From NCBI GenBank assembly GCA_050730875.1, contig JBOHNX010000001.1:77827-141826 (forward strand): 64,000 nt of DNA. The letters run 5' to 3'. The notes beneath the pieces are model-generated. The model was not told the DNA's origin. It was given only the letters and a program-made list of their open reading frames with translations, and did not search any database. Both the position numbers and the translations under genes were made by a program. Shown in pieces: positions 5,560 through 59,548 of the stretch. The first letter of the stretch is position 1. Each line of letters opens with the position of its first letter. The DNA is from Candidatus Saccharimonadales bacterium. Lineage in GTDB: Bacteria > Patescibacteriota > Saccharimonadia > Saccharimonadales > EFPC-124.

Positions 5560-6592
5560 AGGCTTGGAGTTTTTCGATAATGTCATCAATTTCCCCGTTT
5601 AGTGCACCTGGAATATTGCTGCGGCTATAGCCTATGCGGTGGTCGGTAATGCGGTCTTGCGGGAAGTTGTAGGTGCGAATTTTTTCACTACGGTCGCCAG
5701 AGCCAATTAGGCTGCGGCGCTCAGCGGCAAGTTTTGATTGCTCTTCGTCGATCTTCATTTGCAGCAAGCGCGAGCGCAGCACCTTCATGGCTTTATCTTT
5801 GTTCTTGATCTGTGATTTTTCGTCTTGGTTGGCAACAACTAAGCCGGTTGGCAAGTGAGTAATACGCACGGCTGAGTCGGTCGTGTTCACGCTTTGGCCG
5901 CCGTGGCCACTAGCGCGGTAGACGTCGATACGAAGGTCGTTGGGGTTAATTTGAATATCGGTTTCTTCGGCTTCGGGCAGGACGGCAACGGTGACGGTAG
6001 AGGTGTGAATACGGCCAGAACTTTCGGTTGACGGCACACGCTGAACACGATGCACGCCAGATTCAAACTTCAACGTGCTATAAACATCCGCGCCTTTAAC
6101 GCCAAAAATAATTTCTTTAAAACCGCCGACTTCGGATGGGCTTTCGCTAATGAGTTCGGTTTTAAACCCATGCGTTTCGCAGAAACGGGAGTACATACGG
6201 TAGAGCTCGCCGGCAAATAGGCTGGCTTCGTCACCACCGGCACCAGCGCGAATTTCGACTATGACATCCTTTTCGTCGTTTGGATCTTTTGGTGTGAGCA
6301 ATGTAAACAGCTCTTCATCAATGCGACTATACTCGGTTTCGAGCGCAGGAATTTCTTCTTTAGCCAGCTCGGCAAGTTCATCGTTACCACGCGCTAGGCT
6401 GGTAGCTTCTTCGAGCTGTTTGCGGAGGGATGCCTGACGCTCAGCCAGGTTTATAATCGTTTCGAGCTCGTTTAAGCGCTTGGTTTTTTTGGTGAAATCA
6501 GATGAAGAGTACGCATCGGGGCGCGCCAAAAAATCGTTCAACTCGCTTTGCTCAGCTTTTAACTGCTGTAGATTTAGTTGAACTTTAGCCAT
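5519..6592 (-). CDS. prfA: Peptide chain release factor 1
   Basis: GGQ motif [23 protein letters not shown] and the RF1-type P-S-T tripeptide ([14 protein letters not shown]). Confidence 0.95.
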
Positions 6593-9692: not shown

Positions 9693-9705
9693 TTTAGCCT
9701 AAAAA

Positions 9706-9745
9706 ACAGATGGGAATAGCACTTTTGTTAATTCCATCTGTTTTT
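9706..9745 (+). terminator. Rho-independent terminator after tsf
   Basis: ACAGATGGGAAT (9706-9717) pairs with ATTCCATCTGT (9731-9741) and is followed by a T-run. Confidence 0.7.
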
Positions 9746-15836: not shown

Positions 15837-15870
15837 ACACCGCCAATCAGATGGCGGTGTTTGCGTTTTT
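15837..15870 (+). terminator. Rho-independent terminator after greA
   Basis: ACACCGCCA (15837-15845), loop ATCAGA, TGGCGGTGT (15852-15860), then TTGCGTTTTT. Confidence 0.75.
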
Positions 15871-16114
15871 AGAGCCTATTGTAAGACCTTTTCCTTAGTT
15901 CAAACTGAGCACTTTTTGAGCGAAAACCGTTTAGCGCACCCTAGTTTTGCCCTCTTTCGGAGCAAGCTCTTCCACTCGGGGCCAAGCAATGAAAACTCAC
16001 AGTGCCACTGGCACTGTTCGGGAAATATAGCCATAGCTACGCTGGCGAGTGCTAAGCAGTTTGCAACCAGAAAGGGCCAGTTTGGGTCTGGAAAGAGGTT
16101 TTGTAATAGGCTCT
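15871..16114. repeat. About 245-nt intergenic element closed by long-range inverted repeats
   Basis: AGAGCCTATT (15871-15880) pairs with AATAGGCTCT (16105-16114). ACCTTTTCC (15886-15894) pairs with GGAAAGAGGT (16090-16099, one bulge). CAAACTG (15901-15907) pairs with CAGTTTG (16078-16084). A central hairpin CAGTGCC-ACT-GGCACTG sits at 16000-16016. Confidence 0.45.
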
Positions 16115-16132
16115 ATGGTAAGATAAACAGCA

Positions 16133-17671: not shown

Positions 17672-18106
17672 ATGACTGGCCTCAACAAGCAATTTGGCGA
17701 CGAAGGCGAGAAGGAAGTAGTGGAGTTGGTTCCTTGCCCAAACTGTCGTAAAGAGCTGATGTTATTGCCGCCAAATTATCCCATGTGTGACGTGCAGTGT
17801 TCTAGCTGTAATTTTAGAGCGCAAATTAAAACTAGCAGAGCCAAGCCAAGAGCAGAGATTTTTGGCGCAGGCTGGGATGTAACAGACAAAGTATTAAAAT
17901 CTGGCTACTTGATGCCCTCGCTAATTGTGAACTTCAAGTGGGATGATGCTTCGGGCGAGCATCAGGAAATTCGATTCTATCCTTTTGTACCTAAAACAAA
18001 CCTCAAGAAGAGACAATTATCCCTTACGGCTCGTCGGGCAAGTTATAAAATGTTCAATTATATTGGGTTGGATAAATTACCGCACTTTATTTTGTATGAG
18101 AAGTGA
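17672..18106 (+). CDS. Small putative PD-(D/E)xK (Mrr-cat-like) nuclease with inserted CxxC...CxxC zinc ribbon
   Basis: GDEGEKEVVELV, then CPNC...(17 aa)...CDVQCSSC, then RAQIKTSR. This resembles the E...D...QxK arrangement of Mrr-type nucleases. Motif reading only. Confidence 0.45.
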   Translation: MTGLNKQFGDEGEKEVVELVPCPNCRKELMLLPPNYPMCDVQCSSCNFRAQIKTSRAKPRAEIFGAGWDVTDKVLKSGYLMPSLIVNFKWDDASGEHQEIRFYPFVPKTNLKKRQLSLTARRASYKMFNYIGLDKLPHFILYEK

Positions 18107-20180: not shown

Positions 20181-20244
20181 AGATTTGTTTTTTCAAACTT
20201 CTTTTGTATCTCCGCCAGTCGGCAGATATGAAAGGAGTTTTTCT

Positions 20245-21357
20245 ATGTCAAAAACTGTAACCTACTTCGCCAGCGAATCTGTTTGTGCTGGGCATCCAGA
20301 TAAACTGTGTGACCAAATCAGCGACGCTATTTTAGACGAGATCCTCAAGCAAGATCCAAACGCCAAAACCGGTATTGAGGTTATGGCGAGTGCTGACTTG
20401 CTGACGCTAGCAGGCGAAATCCGCACTACCGCCAAGGTGGATTTGGTAGAAACCGCGCGCAAGCAAATCCGTCGCCTTGACTACACCAACGCCGATTGGA
20501 GCTTTCATGACGGCTGCGAAATCCGCAACTTCATACACGGCCAATCGCCCGAAATTGCGGTCGGCGTGGACGCCGAAGGGGCGGGCGACCAGGGTATGAT
20601 GTTTGGCTTTGCCTGCAACGAAACGCCGGAGCTGATGCCGCTGCCAATTGTCCTGGCGCATGCAATTACTAAGGGGATTGATGACGCGCGCGAAAGCGGT
20701 ACGCTGCCGTATTTGCGCCCGGATGGCAAAGCGCAGGTAGTAGTGAAATACGAAAACGATAAGCCGGTTAGCGTTGCCCACGTAACGCTCGCTGCGCCGC
20801 ATAACGAAGATGTTTCGCTCGAGCAAGTAAAGGAAGATTTGCTGGCGAAAATCGTTATGCCGGCGCTGAAAAAGTACGGCTTTACAGTCGACCCGCAAGA
20901 CGTTGTGGCAAACGGCACTGGTGTGTGGCATATTCCTGGCCCAACATCTGACGCTGGCTTAACCGGGCGCAAAATTGTGGTCGATGGCTACGGCGGCTAC
21001 GCCCGAGTTGGCGGTGGTGCCTTTAGCGGTAAAGATCCAAGCAAAGTAGACCGATCCGGCGCATACGCCGCACGCTACGTTGCCAAAAATATTGTGGCAG
21101 CGGGCCTAGCGACCAAGTGTGAAGTTGCATTTGCGTACTACATTGGCGGCAAAACACCGGTCATGACGCGTATCGAAACCTTTGGCACCGAAACAAAACC
21201 GCTGGCCGAAATCCACAAATTTGCCGATGACCTCCTTGAACCGTCGGTGAGGCAAATCGTCGAAAAACTGGACCTCAAGCGACCAATCTATCTACAAACC
21301 GCTGCCTACGGTCACTTTGGCCGCAACGAATTCCCATGGGAGAAGGTTGTCGCTTAA
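20245..21357 (+). CDS. metK: S-adenosylmethionine synthetase
   Basis: Internal ATG 20245 after SD AAAGGAG. Motifs ESVCAGHPDKLCDQISDAILD, GAGDQGMMFGFA and GGGAFSGKDPSKVDRS. Confidence 0.95.
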   Translation: MSKTVTYFASESVCAGHPDKLCDQISDAILDEILKQDPNAKTGIEVMASADLLTLAGEIRTTAKVDLVETARKQIRRLDYTNADWSFHDGCEIRNFIHGQSPEIAVGVDAEGAGDQGMMFGFACNETPELMPLPIVLAHAITKGIDDARESGTLPYLRPDGKAQVVVKYENDKPVSVAHVTLAAPHNEDVSLEQVKEDLLAKIVMPALKKYGFTVDPQDVVANGTGVWHIPGPTSDAGLTGRKIVVDGYGGYARVGGGAFSGKDPSKVDRSGAYAARYVAKNIVAAGLATKCEVAFAYYIGGKTPVMTRIETFGTETKPLAEIHKFADDLLEPSVRQIVEKLDLKRPIYLQTAAYGHFGRNEFPWEKVVA

Positions 21358-25701: not shown

Positions 25702-26997
25702 ATGTTAGACATCCGTTTTATTCGCGAGCACAAAAGTGATGTGCAGAAGGCGAGTGGGCAAAAAGGTTACAAAGTTGATATTGCCCATTTGCTTGAGCTC
25801 GACGAACGCCGCCGCGAACTCCAACAAAAAGCCGAGGGCTTGCGCCAGCAACGCAACGAACTTGCCGAGCAATTAAAAAACGGCAAACCAAGTGACGAGG
25901 CTATCGCCAAGGGTCGCGAACTAAAGACCGAACTTGCGGAAGTTGAAGATCACTTACGAGTTGCAGAAGAAGAGTTCACGAACCTGCTCAAGCAAGTGCC
26001 AAACATGCCGCTTAAAGATGTGCCGATTGGCGCGAGCGAAGACGAAAATGTCATCGCTAAAACAGTCGGCGAGCCTGGCAAATTCGATTTCGAACCAAAA
26101 AACCATTGGGAGCTGGCTGAACAACGCGGCTGGATCGACAAAGAACGAGCCGCGAAGGTTGCAGGCAGCCGCTTTGCATATATAAAAGGCGAGCTAGTCC
26201 GCTTGCAGTGGGCATTGATGCAATTTGGGCTTAACCAGCTCATGGACGAGCAGGTGATTGCCGAGCTTGTCAAAGAAAACAGCCTGAAGGTAAGCACCAA
26301 ACCGTTTACACCAGTATTACCACCGCTCTTAATTCGCACCGACGTGTATGATGCCATGGATCGCTTAGAGCCACGCGACGATCGCTACAAAATCGAGGGC
26401 GAGGAACTGTGGCTGCAGGGCAGCGCAGAACACGTACTCGGTAGTATGCACACTGATGAGATATTCGATGAATCAGACATGCCAATACGTTACGTTGGCT
26501 ACGCTACATCGTTCCGCAAAGAAGCCGGTACCTACGGCAAAGACATGGAGGGGATCATCCGCATGCACCAGTTCGACAAACTGGAAATGGAAAGCTTGTG
26601 TACCCCAGAAACATCTTACGACGAACACCTCCTGATGATCGCGCTGCAAGAGCATCTGATGCAGGCGCTGAAGTTACCGTATAGAGTTGTCAACAAATGC
26701 ACTGCAGATATCGGTAAGCCAAATGCGCGAGGTTGGGACATTGAGGCATGGCTGCCGGGACAGAATAAGTACCGCGAAACTCACACAGCTGACTATATGA
26801 CCGACTACCAAGCTCGACGTTTGCAAACTCGTGTTCGTCGTGACACGGGCGAGCTCGAGCTAACCCACACAAACGACGCAACGGTCTTTTCGCAGCGCCC
26901 ACTTATTGCCATCCTCGAAAATTATCAAAATGAAGATGGTACCGTAGTAGTCCCAGAGGTTTTGCGGCCATTCATGGGTAACAAAAGCCTTCTGTAG
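25702..26997 (+). CDS. serS: Seryl-tRNA synthetase
   Basis: N-terminal coiled-coil arm. Class II motifs YVGYATSFRKEAG and RMHQFDKLE. TGcTATAAT (25687-95) ends 6 nt before the ATG. Confidence 0.95.
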   Translation: MLDIRFIREHKSDVQKASGQKGYKVDIAHLLELDERRRELQQKAEGLRQQRNELAEQLKNGKPSDEAIAKGRELKTELAEVEDHLRVAEEEFTNLLKQVPNMPLKDVPIGASEDENVIAKTVGEPGKFDFEPKNHWELAEQRGWIDKERAAKVAGSRFAYIKGELVRLQWALMQFGLNQLMDEQVIAELVKENSLKVSTKPFTPVLPPLLIRTDVYDAMDRLEPRDDRYKIEGEELWLQGSAEHVLGSMHTDEIFDESDMPIRYVGYATSFRKEAGTYGKDMEGIIRMHQFDKLEMESLCTPETSYDEHLLMIALQEHLMQALKLPYRVVNKCTADIGKPNARGWDIEAWLPGQNKYRETHTADYMTDYQARRLQTRVRRDTGELELTHTNDATVFSQRPLIAILENYQNEDGTVVVPEVLRPFMGNKSLL

Positions 26998-27122
26998 CCA
27001 GGCATTATAGTTTGGCACATTTTGGATTTTTTCTATCCGGTGCTCGACACCGTACATTTGAGTACGGCTTACTCTGCTCCTCAAGAAAAAATCCAAACTG
27101 CACTCAAACGTATAATGCCTGG
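26998..27122. repeat. 125-nt register-symmetric long hairpin immediately after the serS stop
   Basis: CCAGGCATTATA (26998-27009) pairs with TATAATGCCTGG (27111-27122). TTGGATTTTTTC (27022-33) pairs with GAAAAAATCCAA (27085-96). The apex is CCGTAC-ATTTGA-GTACGG (27050-67). Confidence 0.6.
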
Positions 27123-35162: not shown

Positions 35163-36251
35163 ATGGACGAACTTATTAAAAAAGCCAAAGCGCTTCATAA
35201 AGATGTAGCGGCTGGGCTTAAAAAATTAGGTGCCGATAAGATTCAGGCTGAACTTGATGAGCTACAGACGCAAATGGCTAAGCCTGATTTTTGGCAGGAT
35301 GTCATTACGGCGCAAAAAGTAGTGCAGCGTGAAGCTAAGCTGCGTACGCAGCTCGATCCGTGGCAGCGTTTGGCTCAGGATACAGAAGATGTCAGTGAAC
35401 TCATGGCAGTCGGCGACGTCAGCATGGAGGTTGAGCTTGCCCAGCAGCTTGCAGATTTAGAGCGGCGCTATGGCGAGCTTAAGCACGAGCTGCAGTTTTC
35501 TGGCAAATATGATGACCACGACGCAATTTTGCGCCTAAGCGCCGGCGCCGGTGGGACCGATGCTCAAGACTGGACCGAAATGTTGCTGCGCATGTACCTG
35601 CGTTGGTCTGAAAAAAATGGCAATAAAACAGAACTCATCGAGGAATCACGCGGCGAAGAAGCGGGCATAAAAAGTGCGGTCATAAGTGTGAGCGGCGCGT
35701 ATGCTTACGGCAAGCTGAAAGGGGAGCACGGCGTGCATCGTTTAGTGCGCCTTAGCCCTTTTAACGCGGATAATCTGCGTCAAACTAGCTTTGCCTTGGT
35801 TGAGGTTTTACCACAAATCGATGCACCGGAAGAAGTTGAACTCGACGAAAAAGACTTACGCGTAGACGTCTTTCGAGCCGGCGGCCACGGTGGCCAAAGC
35901 GTGAACACTACCGATTCGGCCGTGCGCATCACGCACATCCCAACCGGCATCGTGGTGAGCATCCAAAACGAACGCTCCCAACTGCAAAACAAAGAAACCG
36001 CGTTCAAAATTTTACGCTCAAAACTTGCGCAGCTGCAGCTTGAGCAACACAAAGAAACGTTGGCTGAGCTAAAAGGCCCAACCAAATCAGCCGAATGGGG
36101 CAGCCAAATCCGCAACTACGTGCTGCATCCATACACATTAGTAAAAGACACCCGCACCGGCCACGAAGAACGAGATGCAAACAAAGTACTGGATGGTAGC
36201 TTGAGCGGTTTTATCGAGGCATATCTAAGTCGCACCGAAAAAAGCGCTTAG
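35163..36251 (+). CDS. prfB: Peptide chain release factor 2 (uninterrupted frame)
   Basis: SPF tripeptide (RLVRLSPFNADN) and [23 protein letters not shown]. No in-frame UGA or +1 frameshift site. Confidence 0.95.
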   Translation: MDELIKKAKALHKDVAAGLKKLGADKIQAELDELQTQMAKPDFWQDVITAQKVVQREAKLRTQLDPWQRLAQDTEDVSELMAVGDVSMEVELAQQLADLERRYGELKHELQFSGKYDDHDAILRLSAGAGGTDAQDWTEMLLRMYLRWSEKNGNKTELIEESRGEEAGIKSAVISVSGAYAYGKLKGEHGVHRLVRLSPFNADNLRQTSFALVEVLPQIDAPEEVELDEKDLRVDVFRAGGHGGQSVNTTDSAVRITHIPTGIVVSIQNERSQLQNKETAFKILRSKLAQLQLEQHKETLAELKGPTKSAEWGSQIRNYVLHPYTLVKDTRTGHEERDANKVLDGSLSGFIEAYLSRTEKSA

Positions 36252-42283: not shown

Positions 42284-42285
42284 GT

Positions 42286-42319
42286 TTCGACGGGATGGGA
42301 GCAGTCCCGTCCCGTCGAA
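42286..42319 (+). terminator. Strong GC-rich hairpin directly after the orphan gene stop
   Basis: TTCGACGGGATGGGA (42286-300) pairs with TCCCGTCCCGTCGAA (42305-19): 15 bp with one G-U and a 4-nt loop. No adjacent T-run. Confidence 0.5.
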
Positions 42320-42356
42320 GCAGCTCACTCTCCTTTGGATTTTTATTGTATATAAA

Positions 42357-42386
42357 AGCACACGCCCTAGGGCGTGTGCTTTGTTT
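42357..42386. terminator. Bidirectional rho-independent terminator (serves rpmA on the minus strand)
   Basis: AGCACACGCCC-TA-GGGCGTGTGCT (42357-80), flanked by AAAA on the left and TTGTTT on the right. Confidence 0.65.
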
Positions 42387-44994: not shown

Positions 44995-46122
44995 ATGGAG
45001 CAACCAGTATTTCGTGTTAGCGAACTCATAGCTGTTATTAACCAAACGCTTGAATATGCGTATCCGTCGGTTATTGTTGAGGGCGAGGTTTCATCGTTTA
45101 AGGTCAGCAAAGGTAAGTTTGTATTTTTTGACCTAAAGGACGATGAAGGTGTGGTGAACTGCTTCATGATGGCCTATGCGCTACGTCAGCCCCTTGAAGA
45201 TGGCATGAAGGTTCGGGTAATTGCTCAGCCAAAACTTACGCCTTGGGGTAAATTTAGCCTCACCGTGCGCGAAGTCATGCCAGTTGGCGAGGGGAGCATT
45301 AAGCGTGCGTTCGAACTACTAAAAGCCAAGCTCGAAAAAGAAGGGTTATTTGACCCGGAACGCAAACGCGTCTTGCCCGCAATTCCTGAACGTATTGGTT
45401 TGATTGCCTCGGTAGAATCGGCGGGTTACGCCGATTTTCTGAAGATTCTAAACGGGCGCTGGGGTGGCTTAGATATTCAGGTCGCCGATGTACAGGTGCA
45501 GGGCCTGGGTGCGGCCGAGCAAATTATGCGTGCAATTGATTACTTTAACCAGCAAGCCGATTTAGTGGATGTACTGGTAGTTGTACGCGGTGGCGGCAGC
45601 GCCGATGACTTGGCGGTGTTTAACGAAGAACCACTTGTCCGTGCAGTGGCAGCAAGCCGTATCCCGACCGTCGTAGGTGTCGGGCACGAGGTAGATGTGA
45701 GTCTGTGCGATTTAGCAGCCGATGTTCGCGCGGCGACGCCCAGTAATGCTGCGCAGTTGCTGGTACCGGATCGTGAGGCTTTGGCACGCGAGCTAACACA
45801 GCGCGAGCGCCGCTTGGCAGAACGTATGGCGAACCGTGCCACACAATTGCACCAGCAGGCCGAAAACGCTGCTAGCAGCATGCTGGCTCGTTTGCAGAGT
45901 GTGCTCGATGAGAGAAAACGCCAGGTGGCACAAGCAAAGCTTGTTTTAAAGCAGCTCGATCCTAAAACCGTGCTCCAGCGTGGGTACGCACTAGTCCGTG
46001 ACGAAAAAGGCAGACTAGTGCGTGGCAACGCCGCAAATATTAGTGTTGGCGACGAGCTGACAGTTACCACAAGCCATGCAATAATTAAGGCAGGAGTAAA
46101 AGATGTCAGACCAACCCAATAA
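44995..46122 (+). CDS. xseA: Exodeoxyribonuclease VII large subunit
   Basis: VSELIAVINQTLEYAYPSVIVEGEVSSFK (OB fold), GLIASVESAGYADFL, VVRGGGSADDLAVFN, and VGVGHEVD. Confidence 0.9.
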   Translation: MEQPVFRVSELIAVINQTLEYAYPSVIVEGEVSSFKVSKGKFVFFDLKDDEGVVNCFMMAYALRQPLEDGMKVRVIAQPKLTPWGKFSLTVREVMPVGEGSIKRAFELLKAKLEKEGLFDPERKRVLPAIPERIGLIASVESAGYADFLKILNGRWGGLDIQVADVQVQGLGAAEQIMRAIDYFNQQADLVDVLVVVRGGGSADDLAVFNEEPLVRAVAASRIPTVVGVGHEVDVSLCDLAADVRAATPSNAAQLLVPDREALARELTQRERRLAERMANRATQLHQQAENAASSMLARLQSVLDERKRQVAQAKLVLKQLDPKTVLQRGYALVRDEKGRLVRGNAANISVGDELTVTTSHAIIKAGVKDVRPTQ

Positions 46123-46312
46123 GAAGAAACTGAGCGACCAGTTAACCGAACTCGATGAGCTCCTTGCCTGGTTCGACCAAGACGATATTGACCTCGATGA
46201 AGCACTGAAGAAATTCGACCAAGGCGTGGCTTTGGCGGAAGATATTAAAAAGCATCTCGCCCAGCTCGAGAATAAAATAACTGTTCTAAAAGAGCGCTTT
46301 GACCAAACATGA
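46103..46312 (+). CDS. xseB: Exodeoxyribonuclease VII small subunit
   Basis: 69 aa overlapping the xseA end. LTELDELLAWFDQDDIDLDEALKKFDQGVALAEDIKKHL. Confidence 0.9.
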   Translation: MSDQPNKKKLSDQLTELDELLAWFDQDDIDLDEALKKFDQGVALAEDIKKHLAQLENKITVLKERFDQT

Positions 46313-46315
46313 TTC

Positions 46316-46477
46316 GTGATCATTCCCTCGCTCTGCTTCCACCTCCAACCCCCACCTTGCCGGCTGCAAACTGCGAACCACTCGTCAGCGTAGCTACGGC
46401 TATGCTTCCTCCCGTTTCGCAGTTTTCGCTCGGCAATCTGGCGGTTTCGGTCCGAAAGAGAGCGAGGGAATGATCAC
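46316..46477. repeat. 162-nt register-symmetric long hairpin with 19-bp perfect closing stem
   Basis: GTGATCATTCCCTCGCTCT (46316-34) pairs with AGAGCGAGGGAATGATCAC (46459-77). A second stem, 46357-77 with 46416-36, is in the same register (i+j=92793) with 2-3 mismatches. The right arm contains ATG 46470. Confidence 0.65.
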
Positions 46478-46970
46478 CGCATTTATAATCGCCTGCCTGC
46501 TTCTACTCTTTGGAGCGGTCGTGTTTCGCGGTGCACCGTATGTGCCGACGCTAGGTAAGACTGCCGACACAGCACTAGATATGTTGAATCTGCAAGAAGG
46601 CGAGGTCGTCGTAGACCTGGGCTCTGGCGACGGTATTTTTCTAAAGAAAGCTGCAAAGCGTGGTCAGACGGCCATTGGGTACGAGATTAATCCAATTCTG
46701 TGCGTGATTGCTTGGGGTCGCTGCTGGCGTCAACGCAATCAGGTAAGTGTCCGCTGGCGTGATTTTTGGCTCAGCGAGCTCCCGCCCGAAACAAAAGGCG
46801 TGTACGTTTTTCTGGCCGGTCCGTACATGAATCGGTTTAAACGAAAAATCGAAGCAGAAATGAAAAAGCGCACCGAACCTTTGCGGGTTGTTAGCAATGG
46901 GTTTGCCATTCCTGGTTATTTGCCCAAAAAGATCTCGCAAGGGCTGTACTTGTACGAATTTAAGCCATAA
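46470..46970 (+). CDS. Class I SAM-dependent methyltransferase with N-terminal TM segment
   Basis: VVDLGSGDGIFLKKAAKRG..IGYEINP (motif I and post-I). Confidence 0.7.
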   Translation: MITAFIIACLLLLFGAVVFRGAPYVPTLGKTADTALDMLNLQEGEVVVDLGSGDGIFLKKAAKRGQTAIGYEINPILCVIAWGRCWRQRNQVSVRWRDFWLSELPPETKGVYVFLAGPYMNRFKRKIEAEMKKRTEPLRVVSNGFAIPGYLPKKISQGLYLYEFKP

Positions 46971-47011
46971 GCGCTTTACAAACTAGCCTTCACTTCTTAC
47001 TATTAACGTAT

Positions 47012-47659
47012 ATGCAACAACGCTACGAACAAGGGTTAGTGAATCCGCTTGTCGTCATGACCATCGTGCTTGGCGTACTAGTGGTTGGTTTAAGCGGGTT
47101 CGGCTTATGGTCCTTCATAAACTATCAAGATCAAAAAAATAACGTCGACGCCAAAATAGAAGCCGCGGTGGCCGACGCCAAGCGTGCACAGCGCGAAGAA
47201 GACGAAAAGCTGTTCGCCGAGCGCGAAAAGCAGCCAGTGAGGCAGCTCATTGGCCCGGAAGATCTCGGCCGAGTATCGCTCGATTATCCTAAAACCTGGA
47301 GTGTCTTTGTAGAAAAGAGCGACAATAGCGGCTACGAAGCTTATCTACACCCAGGCGCCGTGCCACCGCTCAATAGCAAAACGCCGCATGCACTGCGTGT
47401 GACTACCCAAGACCGCCCTTACGACCAAGTACTGAAAGAATATCAAGATGCAGTTAAAAAAGGTGAGCTAAAGGCAACGCCAATCGCTGTTGAAGGACTT
47501 AACGGCACACGGCTCGACGGCAACTTTAGCAAAGAGATTCAAGGCTCGATGGTTATCTTTAAAGTTCGCGATAAAACCCTGCGAGTATACACTGAATCGC
47601 GTACCTTCCAGCCTGATTTTGACAACATCATTATCAAGTCGCTCAAGTTCAATCCGTAA
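47012..47659 (+). CDS. Membrane-anchored extracytoplasmic protein, unknown function
   Basis: One TM (VVMTIVLGVLVVGLSGFGLWSF), a charged linker and a beta-rich domain. Promoter TTTACA, 17 nt, TACTAT (46998-47003), ending 8 nt before the ATG. Confidence 0.6.
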   Translation: MQQRYEQGLVNPLVVMTIVLGVLVVGLSGFGLWSFINYQDQKNNVDAKIEAAVADAKRAQREEDEKLFAEREKQPVRQLIGPEDLGRVSLDYPKTWSVFVEKSDNSGYEAYLHPGAVPPLNSKTPHALRVTTQDRPYDQVLKEYQDAVKKGELKATPIAVEGLNGTRLDGNFSKEIQGSMVIFKVRDKTLRVYTESRTFQPDFDNIIIKSLKFNP

Positions 47660-47706
47660 GCAAAACTACAACAGCTCTAAGGTGTCATAACGCTCATGCT
47701 TAAGAG

Positions 47707-48480
47707 TTGTCCCTTGTGCTACACTTATCTGTAGTGAAGGGTAAATTTGGGACGCACGAGCAGTATGTGGATGGCGGGCACCTCGGTGCTTTAGTAGCGG
47801 CGGCGCACGAGCTAAAAACGCCGCTCGCACTTATGTACCATCTGTCGAATACGCTTGATACGCCCGAGTTCGAACTAACGGATTCGGAGCGCACAGAATG
47901 TGTTCAGCGCCTGAAGCTTACAAGCGAAAGAATGTTGCGACTTGTGCAACATTTAACAGTGAGCTATCGCCTAGATAACCAAGATCAACTGGCATTTCAA
48001 TTTGAGCTTGAGCCACTGAGCATTAACGAAGTGTGCGAAAACGCACTCCACGAACTAACCCCATACGCGAAGGGGTACGACCAAGAGCTGCGCTTAAGCG
48101 GACAGCATTGTCCGCATTTGGTTTTGGCGGATCGCGATGTGCTGCACGATATCGTCATTAATTTGGTCGACAATGCCATTCGGCATAACCCCGCTGGTTC
48201 GGTTGTCGATGTCGGGTCACATTGTCGCCGTGACCAAGTACGCCTGAGTGTGCACGATAACGGCCCAGGCGTCAGCCAGCAAGAGCTAACCTCGTTGCGC
48301 CGTACAATCGGCGTCCAGCCACAGCCGCTCAGCGGCCGCGCTGGGAGCAGTGGCTTGGGTTTGTACATCGTTGGGCAATTGGCAAAATCGATGGGCGGTA
48401 ACCTGGGCTTGGGTCGAGCGCAGCAGGGAACCACGTTTTTTGTAGATCTGCTTCGCTCGCAGCAAATGAGCTTACTGTAA
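47707..48480 (+). CDS. Soluble histidine kinase core (DHp + HATPase_c only)
   Basis: H-box AAAHELKTPLAL, N-box LVDNAIRHN, G-boxes DNGPGV and GSSGLGLYIV. No TM or sensor domain. TTG start is uncertain. Confidence 0.8.
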   Translation: MSLVLHLSVVKGKFGTHEQYVDGGHLGALVAAAHELKTPLALMYHLSNTLDTPEFELTDSERTECVQRLKLTSERMLRLVQHLTVSYRLDNQDQLAFQFELEPLSINEVCENALHELTPYAKGYDQELRLSGQHCPHLVLADRDVLHDIVINLVDNAIRHNPAGSVVDVGSHCRRDQVRLSVHDNGPGVSQQELTSLRRTIGVQPQPLSGRAGSSGLGLYIVGQLAKSMGGNLGLGRAQQGTTFFVDLLRSQQMSLL

Positions 48481-48483
48481 GCC

Positions 48484-48864
48484 ATGGCGAGTATTCTTAT
48501 CGTCGAAGATGACCGCTGGTTGGCCGATTGCTATCGGCGTTGGTTAGAAAAGGCCAATCACGCCGTGCGTCACACGACCGATGCTCAGGGCGCCCTGTGG
48601 CTCATCGATGAAGAAGCGCCCGAACTCATTTTGCTCGACATGCTGTTGCCGCAAGCTAATGGCGTGCAACTTCTGCATGAACTACGCTCATACCCAGACC
48701 TCATGCATACCCCCGTCGTAATTTGTAGTAATGCATTGCCAGCTAACACACCGGATCTCGGTGAGTATGGGGTAAAGATTGTGCTCGATAAGGGGTCGCT
48801 GACGCCTACGAAATTGTATGCAGCGATAGATGAGGTGCTTGCACATGCAGCCCCTGCGAACTGA
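48484..48864 (+). CDS. Stand-alone response-regulator receiver domain protein
   Basis: ILIVEDD, LILLDMLLPQANG, and VVICSN...K. No output domain. Confidence 0.85.
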   Translation: MASILIVEDDRWLADCYRRWLEKANHAVRHTTDAQGALWLIDEEAPELILLDMLLPQANGVQLLHELRSYPDLMHTPVVICSNALPANTPDLGEYGVKIVLDKGSLTPTKLYAAIDEVLAHAAPAN

Positions 48865-49519
48865 AGCTATCATTTTGCGCCGCACCAATTACGGGGAGGC
48901 TGATCGAATCCTCAGCTTTTTAACGCCCGAGCGCGGTAAGTTGAGCGCTATTGCCAAAGGTGTGCGGCGACCAAAAAGTAAACTGGCCGGTGGGCTTGAG
49001 TTATTCGCGGTGTGTGACGTTACGCTAATTGAAGGCAGGGGAGAATTAGGAGTTGTTACCAGCGCTCGCATCCAAAAATTTTACGGCGATATTCTGCACG
49101 ATTACGACCGCATGCAGCTTGGCTACGAAATGATCAAGCATATCAACCGCGTCACCGAAACCGTGAGCGAGCCAGATTTTTATTACTTGCTGCGCGATGG
49201 GTTGAAATATCTCAACGAACTCAAACTTGATTGGCGCTTGGTAGAGCTGTGGTTTCGGCTGCGTTTTCAAGCCCTGCTTGGGCATGGTTTAAACCTGGCG
49301 ACTGATATTGACAGCAAGCCGCTCGAAGCAGAGAGCGCCTATAACTTCGAATTTTCCGATATGGCGTTTGTAAAACACCCAAGCGGCAAGTTTAAAGCCG
49401 ATCACCTAAAGCTCCTGCGTCTCGCAAATATAAAAAACCCTGCCGTCTTAGGGCAGGTAAGTGGGGTCGATGCGGTTATGGATGATTGCTTGTGGTTGGT
49501 GCGGACGTTTGATCAGTAA
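48845..49519 (+). CDS. recO: DNA repair protein RecO
   Basis: Internal ATG 48845. MQPLRTEAIILRRTNYGEADRILSFLTPERGKLSAIAKGVRRPKSKLAG. Confidence 0.9.
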   Translation: MQPLRTEAIILRRTNYGEADRILSFLTPERGKLSAIAKGVRRPKSKLAGGLELFAVCDVTLIEGRGELGVVTSARIQKFYGDILHDYDRMQLGYEMIKHINRVTETVSEPDFYYLLRDGLKYLNELKLDWRLVELWFRLRFQALLGHGLNLATDIDSKPLEAESAYNFEFSDMAFVKHPSGKFKADHLKLLRLANIKNPAVLGQVSGVDAVMDDCLWLVRTFDQ

Positions 49520-49544
49520 TTCTAAGCGATTGCCCGCATCCTCG

Positions 49545-50297
49545 CTACGGAAAGTGCACCTCGGGGACCATCGACACTCGTCGTGCCAGATCCACGGGGA
49601 GCCCCCACAAGCCGATGACGGTGGCCAGTAGCTTCACGCTGGTCTTGCGAGCCAGCTTGAATGCCACCTGCCGGTGAATTCGTACCAGGTCGTTCTCACG
49701 GTACGGCTGCCAATGCCTGGCGATCAGCAGGTGGTTCATGACCTGGCGATGCGGGGTGGTTTCTCCGAAGAGCTCCTTCGCCTCGTACAGGTCGATGAGC
49801 GCGTTGTCCGGATCGCTCAGCAGCTTGACTTGTCCGCGGAGGGAGAGCGCCATGGCGCATCCCACGGTCTTCTTGTGCTCGCGGTAGATGCTGAGTGCTT
49901 GCGTCAGTTCGCGCTCTGCATCCGCCAGATTCTGGCTCGAGCCGCCCGGCCGAATGTACTTCTGGAAGTGAGCAATGCCAAGTCCTATACGTACCTCCGC
50001 CCGCAGCAGCCCATCCTCGTCGGTGCGATTGCTGAACAGCGCGGCGGCTCGCTGGTACTCGTAGATGGCCAGGCTGGGTGGTGCACCCTGCAGCAGCGCG
50101 CAGGCGCCCCGTGCAAGGTAGATGTCGAGCAGGAGCTCGCGTGCGGCGTCCGTCTTGGCCGGCTCGATCAGTTGATGAGCCTCAGCGACCTTCTGCATCG
50201 CCTTGTCACCGCGCCCGGCCACAAAGTGCTTGCGACCTTCCTCGAGCAGCCGTTCGGCATGCAGGATCTGCTCATCGTGCGAAACTTGTAGGGTCAC
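49545..50297 (-). CDS. Very GC-rich helical-repeat (TPR-like) hypothetical protein
   Basis: 250-aa GTG-start ORF with strong G/C bias at third codon positions read by eye. A/L/R/E-rich helical repeats. The + strand ORF 49674..50291 is its shadow. Confidence 0.6.
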   Translation of the reverse strand: MTLQVSHDEQILHAERLLEEGRKHFVAGRGDKAMQKVAEAHQLIEPAKTDAARELLLDIYLARGACALLQGAPPSLAIYEYQRAAALFSNRTDEDGLLRAEVRIGLGIAHFQKYIRPGGSSQNLADAERELTQALSIYREHKKTVGCAMALSLRGQVKLLSDPDNALIDLYEAKELFGETTPHRQVMNHLLIARHWQPYRENDLVRIHRQVAFKLARKTSVKLLATVIGLWGLPVDLARRVSMVPEVHFP

Positions 50298-50416
50298 GAT
50301 CTTCTCCTAGATAGTAGAGGATACGATTGCAGTATTAAACTATATTTTATAAATTTCTACAAGTATAGTTTTGCAAATATACAACAACTTATTGTATCTG
50401 TTATAATCAAGCCAAT

Positions 50417-51769
50417 ATGACGAAAAATGAGGCGAGTTTAGAGACGCTCACGAGTCTTGCCAAGCGGCGTGGCTTTGTATTTCAGGCGTCTGAAATCTAC
50501 GGTGGTTTAGCTGGTTTTTGGGACTACGGCCCATACGGTGTCGAGTTGGTAAATAATCTTAAAAATGTCTGGTGGGACGCAATGGTGCGCGAAAACCGCG
50601 AGGTTTTTGGTGTAGATGGTGCGATTATTCAAAATCCCAAGCTGTGGGAGGCGAGCGGTCACATAGCTGGTTTTACGGATCCATTGGTGGATTGTAAAAA
50701 TTGTGGTGCACGCCACCGTGCTGACCATTTGGCTGGGGTAGATTCAACAGACCTTAAAGAACTCGCCAAACTCTTAGAAGGCAAAGCTTGTCCCAAGTGT
50801 GGTAAGAAAACGCTTACTCAGCCTCGCTACTACAACATGATGATGAAAACGTGGGTCGGCCCAATCGAGGACGAAAGCTCGGTTGCATATCTCCGTCCAG
50901 AGACTGCTGGTAGCATTTTTACGAACTATGAAAATGTCCTCGATACTACTCGTAGCAAGATTCCGTTTGGTATTGCCCAAATCGGTAAGGCCTTCCGAAA
51001 CGAAATCAGTCCACGAGACTTTATTTTCCGCGTTCGTGAACTTGAGCAAATGGAGATGCAGTATTTCATCCATCCAGATATGCAGAAAGAACAATATGAA
51101 CGCTGGCGCGAGTTTGCGTGGGATTTCTTAACTAAGCGACTTGGTATTCAAAAAGAGAATCTGCAGTGGCACGAACACGGTCCGGAAGAGCGTGCTCACT
51201 ACGCTGCAGCTGCGCATGACATTTACTTCAAATTCCCACAAGGTTTCAAGGAACTTTGGGGTACTCATAATCGTACAGACTTTGACCTAGGCAACCATAT
51301 GCGAGTGAGTGGTAAAGATCTTACGTACTTTGACGAACAAACACGCGAACATTACACGCCAAATGTGATTGAAAGTTCAGTGGGTGTAGGGCGCATGATG
51401 ATGGCAGTTTTGGCTGATGCCTATCACGAAGAAGAAGTGCGCGGCGAGACACGTGTTGTGCTCAAACTTAAGCCCGAAATCGCACCGGTAAAAGTAGCCG
51501 TTTTGCCGCTCTCAAAGAAGCCAGAATTGTCGGCTCTATCTGAAAAAGTGTATAAAAAACTTGTTCAAGAGACCGGTTGGAATATCGAATACGACGAGAC
51601 CCAAAGCATCGGTAAACGTTACCGCCGCCAAGACGAAATTGGTACGCCATACTGCGTAACCATCGACTTTGAATCACTCGAAGACAACGCCGTCACCATC
51701 CGCCACCGCGACACAATGGAACAAAAACGTGTTCCAATCGACGCCCTCGGGGGCGCAATAAAATTGTAG
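50417..51769 (+). CDS. glyQS: Glycyl-tRNA synthetase (homodimeric class II type)
   Basis: LAKRRGFVFQASEIYGGLAGFWDYGPYG, FRNEISPRDFIFRVREFEQME-type motif 2, and a C-terminal anticodon-binding domain. TGtTATAAT (50399-407) ends 9 nt before the ATG. Confidence 0.95.
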   Translation: MTKNEASLETLTSLAKRRGFVFQASEIYGGLAGFWDYGPYGVELVNNLKNVWWDAMVRENREVFGVDGAIIQNPKLWEASGHIAGFTDPLVDCKNCGARHRADHLAGVDSTDLKELAKLLEGKACPKCGKKTLTQPRYYNMMMKTWVGPIEDESSVAYLRPETAGSIFTNYENVLDTTRSKIPFGIAQIGKAFRNEISPRDFIFRVRELEQMEMQYFIHPDMQKEQYERWREFAWDFLTKRLGIQKENLQWHEHGPEERAHYAAAAHDIYFKFPQGFKELWGTHNRTDFDLGNHMRVSGKDLTYFDEQTREHYTPNVIESSVGVGRMMMAVLADAYHEEEVRGETRVVLKLKPEIAPVKVAVLPLSKKPELSALSEKVYKKLVQETGWNIEYDETQSIGKRYRRQDEIGTPYCVTIDFESLEDNAVTIRHRDTMEQKRVPIDALGGAIKL

Positions 51770-51780
51770 AGGGGCGCACT

Positions 51781-52023
51781 TTGAAGTCGCCTAAACTCGT
51801 CACGGTCTACGTTAAAACCGGAAGCTCACGAGCGTTGGTTTTGCCGTTTGATACTAATGAAACAAATAATGAACTGGCAGTTTATGTGCATGAGCGCCCA
51901 GTGGGTGGTAAAGCGAACGAGGCAGTCATTAAAGCTTTATCGCAATACTTTGGCGTGGCCAAGTCGCGTGTAAAAATTGTGCGTGGCGAAACTTCGCGAG
52001 TCAAGTTGGTTAGCGTAGAATAG
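51781..52023 (+). CDS. DUF167 (YggU-like) small protein
   Basis: VHERPVGGKANEAVIKALSQYFGVAKSRVKIVRGETSRVK. TTG start 7 nt after GAGGGG. Confidence 0.75.
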   Translation: MKSPKLVTVYVKTGSSRALVLPFDTNETNNELAVYVHERPVGGKANEAVIKALSQYFGVAKSRVKIVRGETSRVKLVSVE

Positions 52024-52059
52024 AGGTAGGGCTAGTGCCTTAAACAAGGAGACGCAAAA

Positions 52060-52572
52060 ATGCCATCATTTTTTGAAGCTATGAAACGTATTGTTACCGG
52101 TAAGCCGGTATTTGATATGCAAAATCAACCAACACAAGTGCCGGCGCCTGCTCCGGTTCCAGTACCAAGTGCGCCAACCGCACCGCGCGGACCGAAGGTT
52201 TTGCCGCAGGTAAGTATTGAACAAGTGCGCTGCACGGTGAATGGTGCGAACATGGAATGCGAATGCGATATCCGCAATAACTCTGATCGCCGCGTGCTGA
52301 TGGATAATATCAATTTCCTGGGCAAAAATGTTGAGCTGGAGCGCTACGGAATGTATTTAAATCCGGGCGAAAAACGGGAATATCCGGTATATTCTGGTCC
52401 GCGACCGACAAATACTTATGCCAAAGAAGTTACGCTGCGGTACCGCGAAGAGAGCGAGCAAAACCGCGGTGATTATTTTGCTACCAAACACAATTTAGAA
52501 TTCCGAAAAGAAGCTGACGGCACCTACACCGTGTCGCGGATTTACTTCATACCTCCTGTAAGAGACGTGTAG
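52060..52572 (+). CDS. Hypothetical protein (170 aa) with Pro-rich linker
   Basis: Good SD AAGGAG 8 nt upstream. PAPAPVPVPSAPTAP linker, then a beta-rich domain. No motif recognised. Confidence 0.55.
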   Translation: MPSFFEAMKRIVTGKPVFDMQNQPTQVPAPAPVPVPSAPTAPRGPKVLPQVSIEQVRCTVNGANMECECDIRNNSDRRVLMDNINFLGKNVELERYGMYLNPGEKREYPVYSGPRPTNTYAKEVTLRYREESEQNRGDYFATKHNLEFRKEADGTYTVSRIYFIPPVRDV

Positions 52573-53434
52573 TAAACAGGTATTCTTCGAGCAGTGCCTC
52601 GCGTGCGCTATCGTGCAGGAAGAATGTTTCTTGGTCGCCCAGGGCGTGAGTGAACTGGTTTGCAAAACCGCCTGGTGTTAATGCTTGTACGCGGTGGGCG
52701 AGTCGAGCAACGGCGACGTACAGCTGATGTTGCAGAGCGTCAGGGTTCTGTGGCGGTTGGGCAAGGTCGAGCGCACGCTGAAAAGCGGCGGCCACCTCTA
52801 AAAACTGTTGGCTTGCGCCAAGCAGAGTATCGAGCGCATCGTCGATTGCTTGCATGCGGTATGGGTTGTTGGGCGCAAACGTATGCACGTCGATGTCGCG
52901 CTGCCGCAGAAAGCGCACTACCTCCTGCCATTTTTTGAACGCCGCGGCCTCTAGCTGGCTTTTTGGCGAAAGCCCAAGCTTGCTTAATGCGACGCCAGTA
53001 TCATAGTTAATACACAATCCGGCGTCTGGCGCGTGCGAGAGAACACGTCTGAAGGCTTCGGGCTGAGCGGGCGCGGTAAGGTAAATGCTGTAGCAATGGT
53101 CCGGGAGTGTATTGACGTGCGAGGGCGCAACAAAATAGACTTGTGCTCCCCGCAGCTCACTCGGTAATTTAGAAGTGAACTTCGCCTGTTGCATATGCAT
53201 AATGTCGCGCGTGAGGCGCAAAATCTCTTCGGCGTTAAGCGTGCTAGCGCGCTGCTTTTGTGCGCCACGCATTAACCTAAACCAGTACTTGCGGACAACG
53301 CTCATAAAAATAACTGGGTTCGCGCAGACGACAACCGCAGTACCAAGGTACTGGCGGCTTTGCAAATGCTTGGCAAGATCTGCCGCAATACCCGCGTGGT
53401 CGTTTACAATACGAAGTTCATAATAATGTGCCAC
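52547..53434 (-). CDS. Hypothetical protein (295 aa), co-oriented 10 nt downstream of radC
   Basis: Long ORF with protein-like composition. No motif recognised. Its 3' end overlaps the convergent 52060..52572 gene by 26 nt. Confidence 0.55.
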   Translation of the reverse strand: MAHYYELRIVNDHAGIAADLAKHLQSRQYLGTAVVVCANPVIFMSVVRKYWFRLMRGAQKQRASTLNAEEILRLTRDIMHMQQAKFTSKLPSELRGAQVYFVAPSHVNTLPDHCYSIYLTAPAQPEAFRRVLSHAPDAGLCINYDTGVALSKLGLSPKSQLEAAAFKKWQEVVRFLRQRDIDVHTFAPNNPYRMQAIDDALDTLLGASQQFLEVAAAFQRALDLAQPPQNPDALQHQLYVAVARLAHRVQALTPGGFANQFTHALGDQETFFLHDSAREALLEEYLFTTRLLQEV

Positions 53435-59348: not shown

Positions 59349-59364
59349 TCTTGGCTGCTGCTTT

Positions 59365-59482
59365 TCGCCATATTCTCTAACAGAGCAAATGTGCCCGCTC
59401 CTCCACAACACTCAAAAGCCCTGAGGTACAGGGTTTCGAGTGTTGCTCCAGAGCTACGATCCTCTGTTAGAGAATATGGCGA
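59365..59482. repeat. 118-nt long hairpin with 20-21 bp perfect closing stem
   Basis: CGCCATATTCTCTAACAGAG (59366-85) pairs with CTCTGTTAGAGAATATGGCG (59462-81), plus a T-A extension. The inner stem is CAACACTC..CCCTG-AGGTA-CAGGG..GAGTGTTG (59406-45). The loops between the stems are asymmetric. Confidence 0.65.
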
Positions 59483-59548
59483 GCGCAGCTCATCGTCAGT
59501 AATGCGAAGATAGTTATTTTTCCCCAGAATTGTGGAAAAATGCAAGAA

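Follow-up and report, generated by a model that had tools for sequence, protein, structure and literature searches.

A lineage-specific 162-nt palindrome at the xseB-methyltransferase junction of a Saccharimonadales genome and its likeness to small dispersed palindromic repeats

The window analyzed here, a 64,000-nt stretch of the genome of a Candidatus Saccharimonadales bacterium (contig JBOHNX010000001.1), carries the gene for the small subunit of exonuclease VII, xseB (46103-46312, plus strand; 69 aa), whose identity was confirmed by Pfam (PF02609, Exonuc_VII_S, E 2.9e-9) and whose product is identical to that of the xseB gene called on the Logan contig SRR27067773_48. Downstream on the same strand lies a gene for a class I SAM-dependent methyltransferase (MT) of 166 aa (46470-46970; NCBI MGH7196267.1; Pfam). 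The junction of the two genes is occupied by a 162-nt imperfect palindrome, designated E1 (46316-46477, no strand assigned), which begins 3 nt downstream of the xseB stop codon (TGA, 46310-46312) and, as the first-pass annotation of this DNA had pointed out, holds the MT start codon, ATG 46470, inside its right arm. This start is backed by an N-terminal alignment with eight homologues. The MT N-terminus, M-I-T, is encoded by the terminal 8 nt of the right arm (ATGATCAC) and is the same in the homologues P0014 and P0018, and the 3' flank of E1 (CGCATTTATAATC) is already MT coding sequence. The whole junction is bridged by an open reading frame of 54 codons (MIRDHSLALLPPPTPT...RKRARE; 46309-46473, plus strand) with a 4-nt overlap at either end: its start codon shares an ATGA with the xseB stop codon, which is the left copy of an ATGA(T) direct repeat (46309-46313), and its stop codon shares a second ATGA with the MT start. 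The 23-codon upstream ORF reported earlier (ATG 46402) does end in this second ATGA, but its extent has to be revised, as it is only the tail of the 54-codon frame.

The outer stem of E1 is formed by two perfect arms of 19 nt, the left one (46316-46334) containing UCCCUC, which pairs with GAGGGA located 5' of the MT start in the right one (46459-46477). The corresponding 19-mer, GTGATCATTCCCTCGCTCT, was found in the window only at 46316-46334 (plus strand) and 46459-46477 (minus strand) when up to three mismatches were allowed, against a chance expectation of 0.03 matches. In a repeat search, the arms extended to 46316-46394 and 46399-46477, i.e., 79 nt each with 71% complementarity and a 4-nt loop, and 56 of the 81 positions of the ungapped register are Watson-Crick pairs. 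The inner stem (46357-46377 with 46416-46436; 17 of 21 positions complementary, as read by eye from the sequence) lies in the same register, and the description of the element as one long imperfect palindrome, together with the coordinates given for it, its arms and its inner stem, was borne out in full. Whereas the outer stem is perfect, pairing in the interior reaches only about 60%; pyrimidine-pyrimidine oppositions account for 15 of the 25 mismatches, and the internal loops are unpaired and C/T-rich on both arms. An 8-bp apical hairpin, AGCGUAGC-UACG-GCUAUGCU (46387-46406, plus strand), is present in the minimum free energy structures. Folded as RNA, the plus strand of E1 gave a single long hairpin of -89.1 kcal/mol (z -10.8; none of 200 shuffles was as low), and the minus strand gave -98.6 kcal/mol (z -10.0), the lower energy being due to its purine-rich loops; with DNA parameters, -49.5 kcal/mol was obtained (z -9.3). 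The strand asymmetry was rejected as a sign of an RNA made from one strand, the ungapped register having five G-T and four C-A positions. By inspection, the ends of E1 read GTGATCA...TGATCAC, and a GATC site is located in each outer arm.

The orthologous junction was compared in the loci of the three closest MT homologues, four in number and representing three lineages (L014; L015 and L016; L017), the nearest MT homologues being 64-71% identical. The gene order in L015 and L017 is that of the window (LPG-synthase, xseA, xseB, MT, a 216-aa gene, hisK, RR, recO), and the shorter contigs of L014 and L016 cover only the stretch around xseB-MT. At all four loci E1 is missing, and xseB ends 4 nt into MT with a single ATGA and no spacer. 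Alignment of the junctions revealed about 161 extra nt in the window, bounded by ATGAT on both sides (ACATGAT/TCGTG...GGGA ATGAT/CACC). E1 is a lineage-specific insertion and not an ancestral feature of this junction, a single gain being far likelier than its precise loss in three lineages. No copy of the element was detected in about 55 kb of the relatives' DNA.

The ends of the insertion can be read in more than one way, as ATGA(T) stands at either flank of E1 and the same bases are alternatively readable as a duplication of the palindrome TGATCA. The bases ATGATCAC closing the right arm are probably host sequence, because the M-I-T N-terminus is common to the homologues; as they form the host MT start, the left GTGATCAT has the look of a host flank copied in inverse orientation. 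Under one reading, ATGA(T) was duplicated at the target and the stem was extended later, when the flank was copied in inverted form to give the left GTGATCAT. Another possibility is that the palindrome TGATCA was duplicated, with the ancestor beginning at GTG, 3 bases past the xseB stop. The ancestral junction would have been ATGATCACC under the ATGA(T) duplication and TGA-TTC-GTGATCACC under the TGATCA duplication.

In a read-through mRNA of xseAB and MT, E1 is predicted to fold with about -89 kcal/mol, and its outer helix would hide both the GAGG and the AUG of MT, the pairing of UCCCUC with GAGGGA before AUG 46470 being expected to block direct MT initiation. The earlier statement that the MT start would be buried in a 19-bp helix of such a transcript is correct as a deduction from the sequence. 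At the same time, the left ATGA would be the former MT start with its original coupling context retained. The insertion may have been tolerated because this old start now opens the 54-codon ORF across the hairpin: ribosomes ending xseB would restart at the left ATGA, melt the hairpin over 54 codons, stop at the right ATGA and restart on the MT AUG, a logic also put forward for the mycobacterial MIRUs. The arrangement is suggestive, and the bridging ORF can be regarded as a candidate ribosome relay through the hairpin; since such an ORF is expected by chance with a probability of about 0.07 (about 0.21 for the open frame multiplied by 1/3 for the in-phase position), the relay is not statistically secured. 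The 54-aa product gave no match in Pfam and no homologue in a protein search of 5.8 billion proteins, and it is probably not a functional protein.

A paralogue of E1 is present elsewhere in the genome, so the repeat family has at least two members. This paralogue, E3, is a 246-nt palindrome between greA and lysS, upstream of lysS (15870-16115, minus strand), about 30 kb from E1 and in the opposite orientation, with its minus strand colinear with the plus strand of E1. The common core of 55 nt (46355-46409 on the plus strand of E1; 16075-16021 on the minus strand of E3) is 82% identical (blastn E 2e-10; nhmmer 1e-21; z = 20 against shuffles). The similarity starts about 17-20 nt from the end of both elements and extends over the inner part of the left arm together with the apical hairpin; in the right arm, the short motifs GTTTTCGCTC and TCCGAAAGAGRGC recur in both. 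The arms of E3 (38 nt) are 71% complementary, and an additional block of about 80 nt sits near its apex and includes a perfect CAGTGCC-AGT-GGCACTG hairpin. Without this block E3 is a 166-nt hairpin of the same layout as the 162-nt E1. The outer 16-19 nt or so of E1 (GTGATCATTCCCTCGC) and E3 (TAGAGCCTATTACAAAAC) could not be aligned, and the outermost stems of both elements are each well paired despite their unrelated sequences. When the 59 pairs of E1 were followed into E3, 29 were unchanged, seven were changed on both sides and kept, three were changed on one side and kept, 14 were broken and six were gapped, these counts being based on a sequence-based arm alignment that is unreliable where similarity is low. 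E1 lies in sense to its flanking genes and E3 in antisense to its own; E3 is not at a gene overlap or start codon, and its flanks match in a TA duplication at most. As the two copies have unrelated outer arms, a transposase would find no terminal inverted repeat in common, and a classical enzyme recognizing such repeats is unsupported. As to the gene next to E3, the LysRS of this genome (16133-17653; MGH7196232.1) has 506 aa, as against about 770 aa in many related LysRS (e.g., P0123, P0125 and P0132), the longer relatives carrying an extra N-terminal PF01411 domain (class II tRNA-synthetase, alanyl-type). The gene content of the greA-lysS interval varies among relatives (L026, L027), and a DpnI-like gene (PF06044) is located directly downstream of lysS (L024:1651-2085, about 17672-18106 of the window).

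Searches for further copies gave E1 and E3 as the only two in about 69 kb of the source genome. A self-comparison of the window by blastn yielded the one diverged paralogue; a nhmmer profile of the common core detected no further copy in 278 kb of DNA. Distant blastn of E1 against plasmid and phage collections gave no match, and the core patterns gave none in viral contigs. Scans with the 19-mer of the outer arm resulted in 12 matches in genome contigs, five in metagenome contigs and none in viral contigs. All 17 matches comprised a single arm, those in named genomes fell into unrelated phyla, and ten extended by one base to GTGATCATTCCCTCGCTCTC, reading V-I-I-P-S-L; given this reading and the single arm, they were rejected as copies of E1 and taken as coding coincidences. 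These scans say little about the family size, because the outer arm is the locus-specific part of the element.

The Logan short-read contigs of the same organism (SRR27067773) were also mapped to the window. Contig _143 ends at 15916, contig _48 runs from 16022 to 46365, contig _285772 from 46412 to 52639, and contig _69856 from 52863 to 68872, so two of the three mapped contig breaks fall inside E3 (15916/16022) and E1 (46365/46412). The strength of a hairpin alone does not explain these breaks, since the hairpins E2, E4 and that at 42284 (see below) were crossed without a contig break; it is likelier that the assembly was interrupted by variant alleles in the population or by additional copies with 31-mers in common.

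Taking these results together, we consider it somewhat better than an even bet that E1 is a low-copy, non-coding palindromic repeat of the ERIC/MIRU/MITE-like kind, inserted at the coupled ATGA of xseB and MT and tolerated within the operon. It is classed here among the small dispersed palindromic repeats, and no described RNA family was matched. The MITE-like palindrome, one of several roles put forward in the first pass, comes closest to the evidence: the empty sites and the paralogue agree with it, but with unrelated terminal arms, only two copies seen and a target duplication that can be read in more than one way, E1 is no textbook MITE. Candidates for the copying of E1 would be a transposase, a Y1/RAYT-type enzyme acting on single-stranded DNA, and template switching or ectopic copying.

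Several other identities were tried. The Rfam check proposed for E1 returned no match at gathering thresholds at E1, E3 or E2, and at E <= 10 all matches were far below their gathering scores, the best one (E 0.014, at E3) having 21.7 bits against a gathering score of 114; the sole Rfam match reaching its gathering threshold in the window was a SAM riboswitch (RF00162, 20069-20176, plus strand, 53.4 bits) lying 5' of the gene at 20185-21357. A tmRNA-like tag in the core (GCAAAC...) was rejected, ARAGORN having found no tmRNA or tRNA. An integron attC was rejected because the R''/R' core sites (RYYYAAC ... GTTRRRY) are missing by inspection and no integrase gene is adjacent. Retrons and IS200/IS605 ends were rejected likewise, with the core sites missing and no integrase or reverse transcriptase among the genes scanned beside E1.

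The first alternative to a tolerated repeat is that E1 has been co-opted as a cis-acting RNA, whether as an RNase III site, a 3' stabilizer of xseAB, a terminator lacking a U-tract or an occluder uncoupling MT; we regard it as unlikely. The very stable helix burying the MT GAGG and AUG would suit such a role, as would the perfection of the 19-bp outer stem relative to the interior. The C-rich segments noted earlier were found where they had been placed, and the anti-Shine-Dalgarno-like sequences CACCUCC and CUUCCUCCC lie in weakly paired parts. In addition, other long hairpins in this DNA begin 0-15 nt past stop codons. A precedent is provided by the Correia elements, which are bound, cleaved or protected by RNase III and alter the expression of neighboring genes (PMC2649163). 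However, the orthologous site is empty in three related lineages, and for this reason E1 is not a conserved regulator. An intrinsic terminator was rejected: no U-tract follows E1, and no terminator-like match was found in 46316-46477. E3, moreover, is oppositely oriented relative to its flanking genes. A translational attenuator or small RNA as the evolved role is weakly supported, with no conservation of the site, no Rfam match, no internal promoter-like or terminator-like site and a different orientation of the two copies to their neighboring genes.

To place E1 among the hairpins of this genome, all intergenic spacers of the window were folded, and several strong hairpins were found to begin 0-15 nt past stop codons. 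E2 (59357-59489; -74 kcal/mol) lies just past a stop codon and has a second copy, E2b, 8.5 kb away and 82% identical (L030:15027-15161, corresponding to about 67889-68023, outside the window). The two copies, of about 133-135 nt and in the same orientation, bracket the cell-division cluster from mraZ to ftsQ; a covariance model detected no third copy of the family in 145 kb of DNA. E4 is a 121-nt hairpin of about -47 kcal/mol (27000-27120), 2 nt past the stop of the gene ending at 26997, and shows no similarity to E1, E2 or E3. A perfect 17-bp G+C-rich hairpin (42284-42321) stands directly past a stop codon; a 12-bp hairpin with a T-rich tract comes next (42355-42382), and another hairpin with a subsequent T-rich tract is located at 9702-9745. 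No relatedness to E1 was found for E2, E4 or the other intergenic regions. In the relative L017, a hairpin of about 100 nt (L017:4205-4300; -61.6 kcal/mol) separates the 216-aa gene from hisK, two genes that are only 47 nt apart in the window, so that hairpin insertions with different sequences seem to be recurrent in the clade. The roughly 850 nt past E2b to the end of its contig (L030:15162-16010) hold no called gene, look A+T-rich and contain two copies of a GTAGGGCGGAGG motif. A stretch of 131 nt with 76% identity was also noted at 5796-5926 (minus strand) and 35865-35995 (plus strand), inside two opposite genes for proteins of about 360 aa, which are probably ordinary paralogues.

The pair E2/E2b is instructive as to how such stems are kept. 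All 51 predicted pairs are paired in both copies (100%), ten of them with changes on both sides and none with a change on one side; this degree of compensation was reached by none of 500 shuffles and by none of the slid controls. One more pair may be formed by a C inserted in one arm and a G inserted in the other, and the compensated changes often come in runs of two to three adjacent positions. According to a hand count on the alignments, about 16-21% of the unpaired columns differ between the copies as compared with about 20% of the paired ones. The notion of conserved loops and variable stems was therefore rejected, and the signal is one of upkeep of pairing and not of loop conservation, since unpaired positions differ about as often. 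Such compensation can result from selection on folded RNA or single-stranded DNA, or from template switching at the DNA level, in which one arm serves as the template for the other and which is known to create and maintain hairpins (PMC8794818). The adjacent compensated runs fit template switching somewhat better than selection.

A similar process is the basis of the second alternative, according to which E1 is not transposable, and its hairpin was made by template switching or ectopic templated repair, partly copied from E3 or the reverse, with arm-to-arm copying keeping the stems perfect. Only the central 55 nt are clearly common with E3, and the outer stems are locus-specific yet perfectly paired; the left GTGATCAT resembles, in inverted form, the host flank that forms the M-I-T end of the right arm; and the fully compensated changes of E2/E2b, often two to three adjacent, are the signature expected of the process (PMC8794818). 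At the same time, a single event would have to bring about 160 nt into a 4-nt overlap and regenerate both ATGA motifs. Arm copying should also erase the C/T-rich unpaired loops, but these persist in E1 (15 of 25 mismatches pyrimidine-pyrimidine), and the breaks in the short-read assembly at both E1 and E3 hint at further copies or variants. On balance, we hold this origin to be rather improbable.

The same is our estimate of another possibility, a previously undescribed class of structure-propagated hairpins of Saccharimonadales in which the core is conserved and the stems vary but are always paired. Points in its favor are the compensation of ten out of ten changed pairs in E2/E2b and the outer stems of E1 and E3, unrelated in sequence and yet paired. 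Such a structure-defined class would fit a mobility system that recognizes the structure of single-stranded DNA, with a logic like that of attC or REPINs; alternatively, it would fit a functional RNA family confined to these reduced, episymbiotic bacteria. On this reading, E1 would have arrived recently and hijacked the translational coupling of xseB and MT.

C-rich loops typically serve as seed regions in some Gram-positive small RNAs. An independent small RNA gene on either strand between xseB and MT is nevertheless highly improbable: E1 has such loops, folds strongly on both strands (the minus strand being about 9.5 kcal/mol more stable) and bears the apical UACG hairpin in its conserved core, but neither strand of 46316-46477 holds a promoter-like or terminator-like site, Rfam shows no similarity, neither strand has an excess of G-U over C-A (5 vs 4), and the element is missing in the relatives.

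If E1 is indeed a tolerated palindromic repeat, gene-dense genomes of about 1 Mb from the Candidate Phyla Radiation would acquire and tolerate small palindromic repeats even in coupled operons, and the junction would represent a second, phylogenetically remote case of the MIRU solution, in which the inserted element brings its own relay ORF. On the practical side, elements of the E1/E3 type break short-read assemblies of such genomes, and a palindrome across a start codon can mislead the annotation of starts and small ORFs. The compensated stems of E2/E2b offer a clean natural test case for selection at the RNA level versus template switching at the DNA level.

Among the known classes of small repeats, the MITEs, such as Correia/CREE of Neisseria and RUP of Streptococcus pneumoniae, share with E1 a length of about 100-160 bp, the non-coding nature, terminal inverted repeats (19 bp and perfect in E1; 38 nt and 71% complementary in E3) and the formation of a long hairpin when co-transcribed, and they alter the expression of neighboring genes, the Correia elements via RNase III (PMC2649163). 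However, MITE families have a conserved terminal inverted repeat and a constant target duplication (TA for Correia). The terminal repeat is not common to E1 and E3, their similarity beginning about 17-20 nt inside the ends, and a common target duplication is not evident, the flanks of E1 being readable as ATGA(T) or TGATCA and those of E3 as TA at most. MITEs are characteristically present in many copies per genome and accompanied by a related autonomous IS; two copies of E1/E3 were seen in about 69 kb.

REPINs, doublets of REP sequences mobilized by RAYT transposases, form imperfect intergenic hairpins of about 70-110 nt without a target duplication and are thought to move as single-stranded DNA hairpins, so that in parts of the stem the pairing rather than the sequence can persist. 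E1 is likewise a long imperfect hairpin in intergenic DNA, but a genome with REPINs has tens to hundreds of them, nearly identical and dependent on a RAYT gene, as against two copies of E1/E3 in about 69 kb. The ERIC/IRU elements of Enterobacteriaceae are palindromic, though imperfectly, over their full length of about 127 bp and conserve a central core; they are located in transcribed intergenic regions in either orientation and have size variants due to internal insertions. The conserved core of E1 and E3, their occurrence in both orientations and the 80-nt internal block of E3 parallel these features. Unlike E1 and E3, whose outer stems are unrelated, ERIC copies can be aligned over their full length, and the ERIC elements, listed among the small repeats (PMC3184786), have no sequence similarity to E1 and belong to another phylum.

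MIRUs (mycobacterial interspersed repetitive units) insert at start codons within operons, carry an internal ORF coupled at -4 nt through which translational coupling is handed on, are flanked by tetranucleotide direct repeats and show filled and empty sites between related genomes (PMC12548453, PMC3184786). The single E1 locus shows each of these features: E1 is inserted at a start codon in an operon junction with filled and empty sites and, in its sequence, a tetranucleotide repeat (ambiguous as a target duplication), and its sense ORF overlaps both neighbors by 4 nt (with the chance probability of about 0.07). However, MIRUs are 40-100 bp long, often tandem and present in about 40-50 copies per genome, whereas E1 is a single hairpin of 162 nt; they are always oriented with the flanking genes and are not palindromic over their whole length, whereas E3 has the opposite orientation and no position at a start codon or gene overlap, so that constant orientation and a recurrent ORF are not found in the pair. 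Judged by these analogies, E1 appears closest to the MIRUs in behavior and to the whole-length palindromes of the ERIC type in form.
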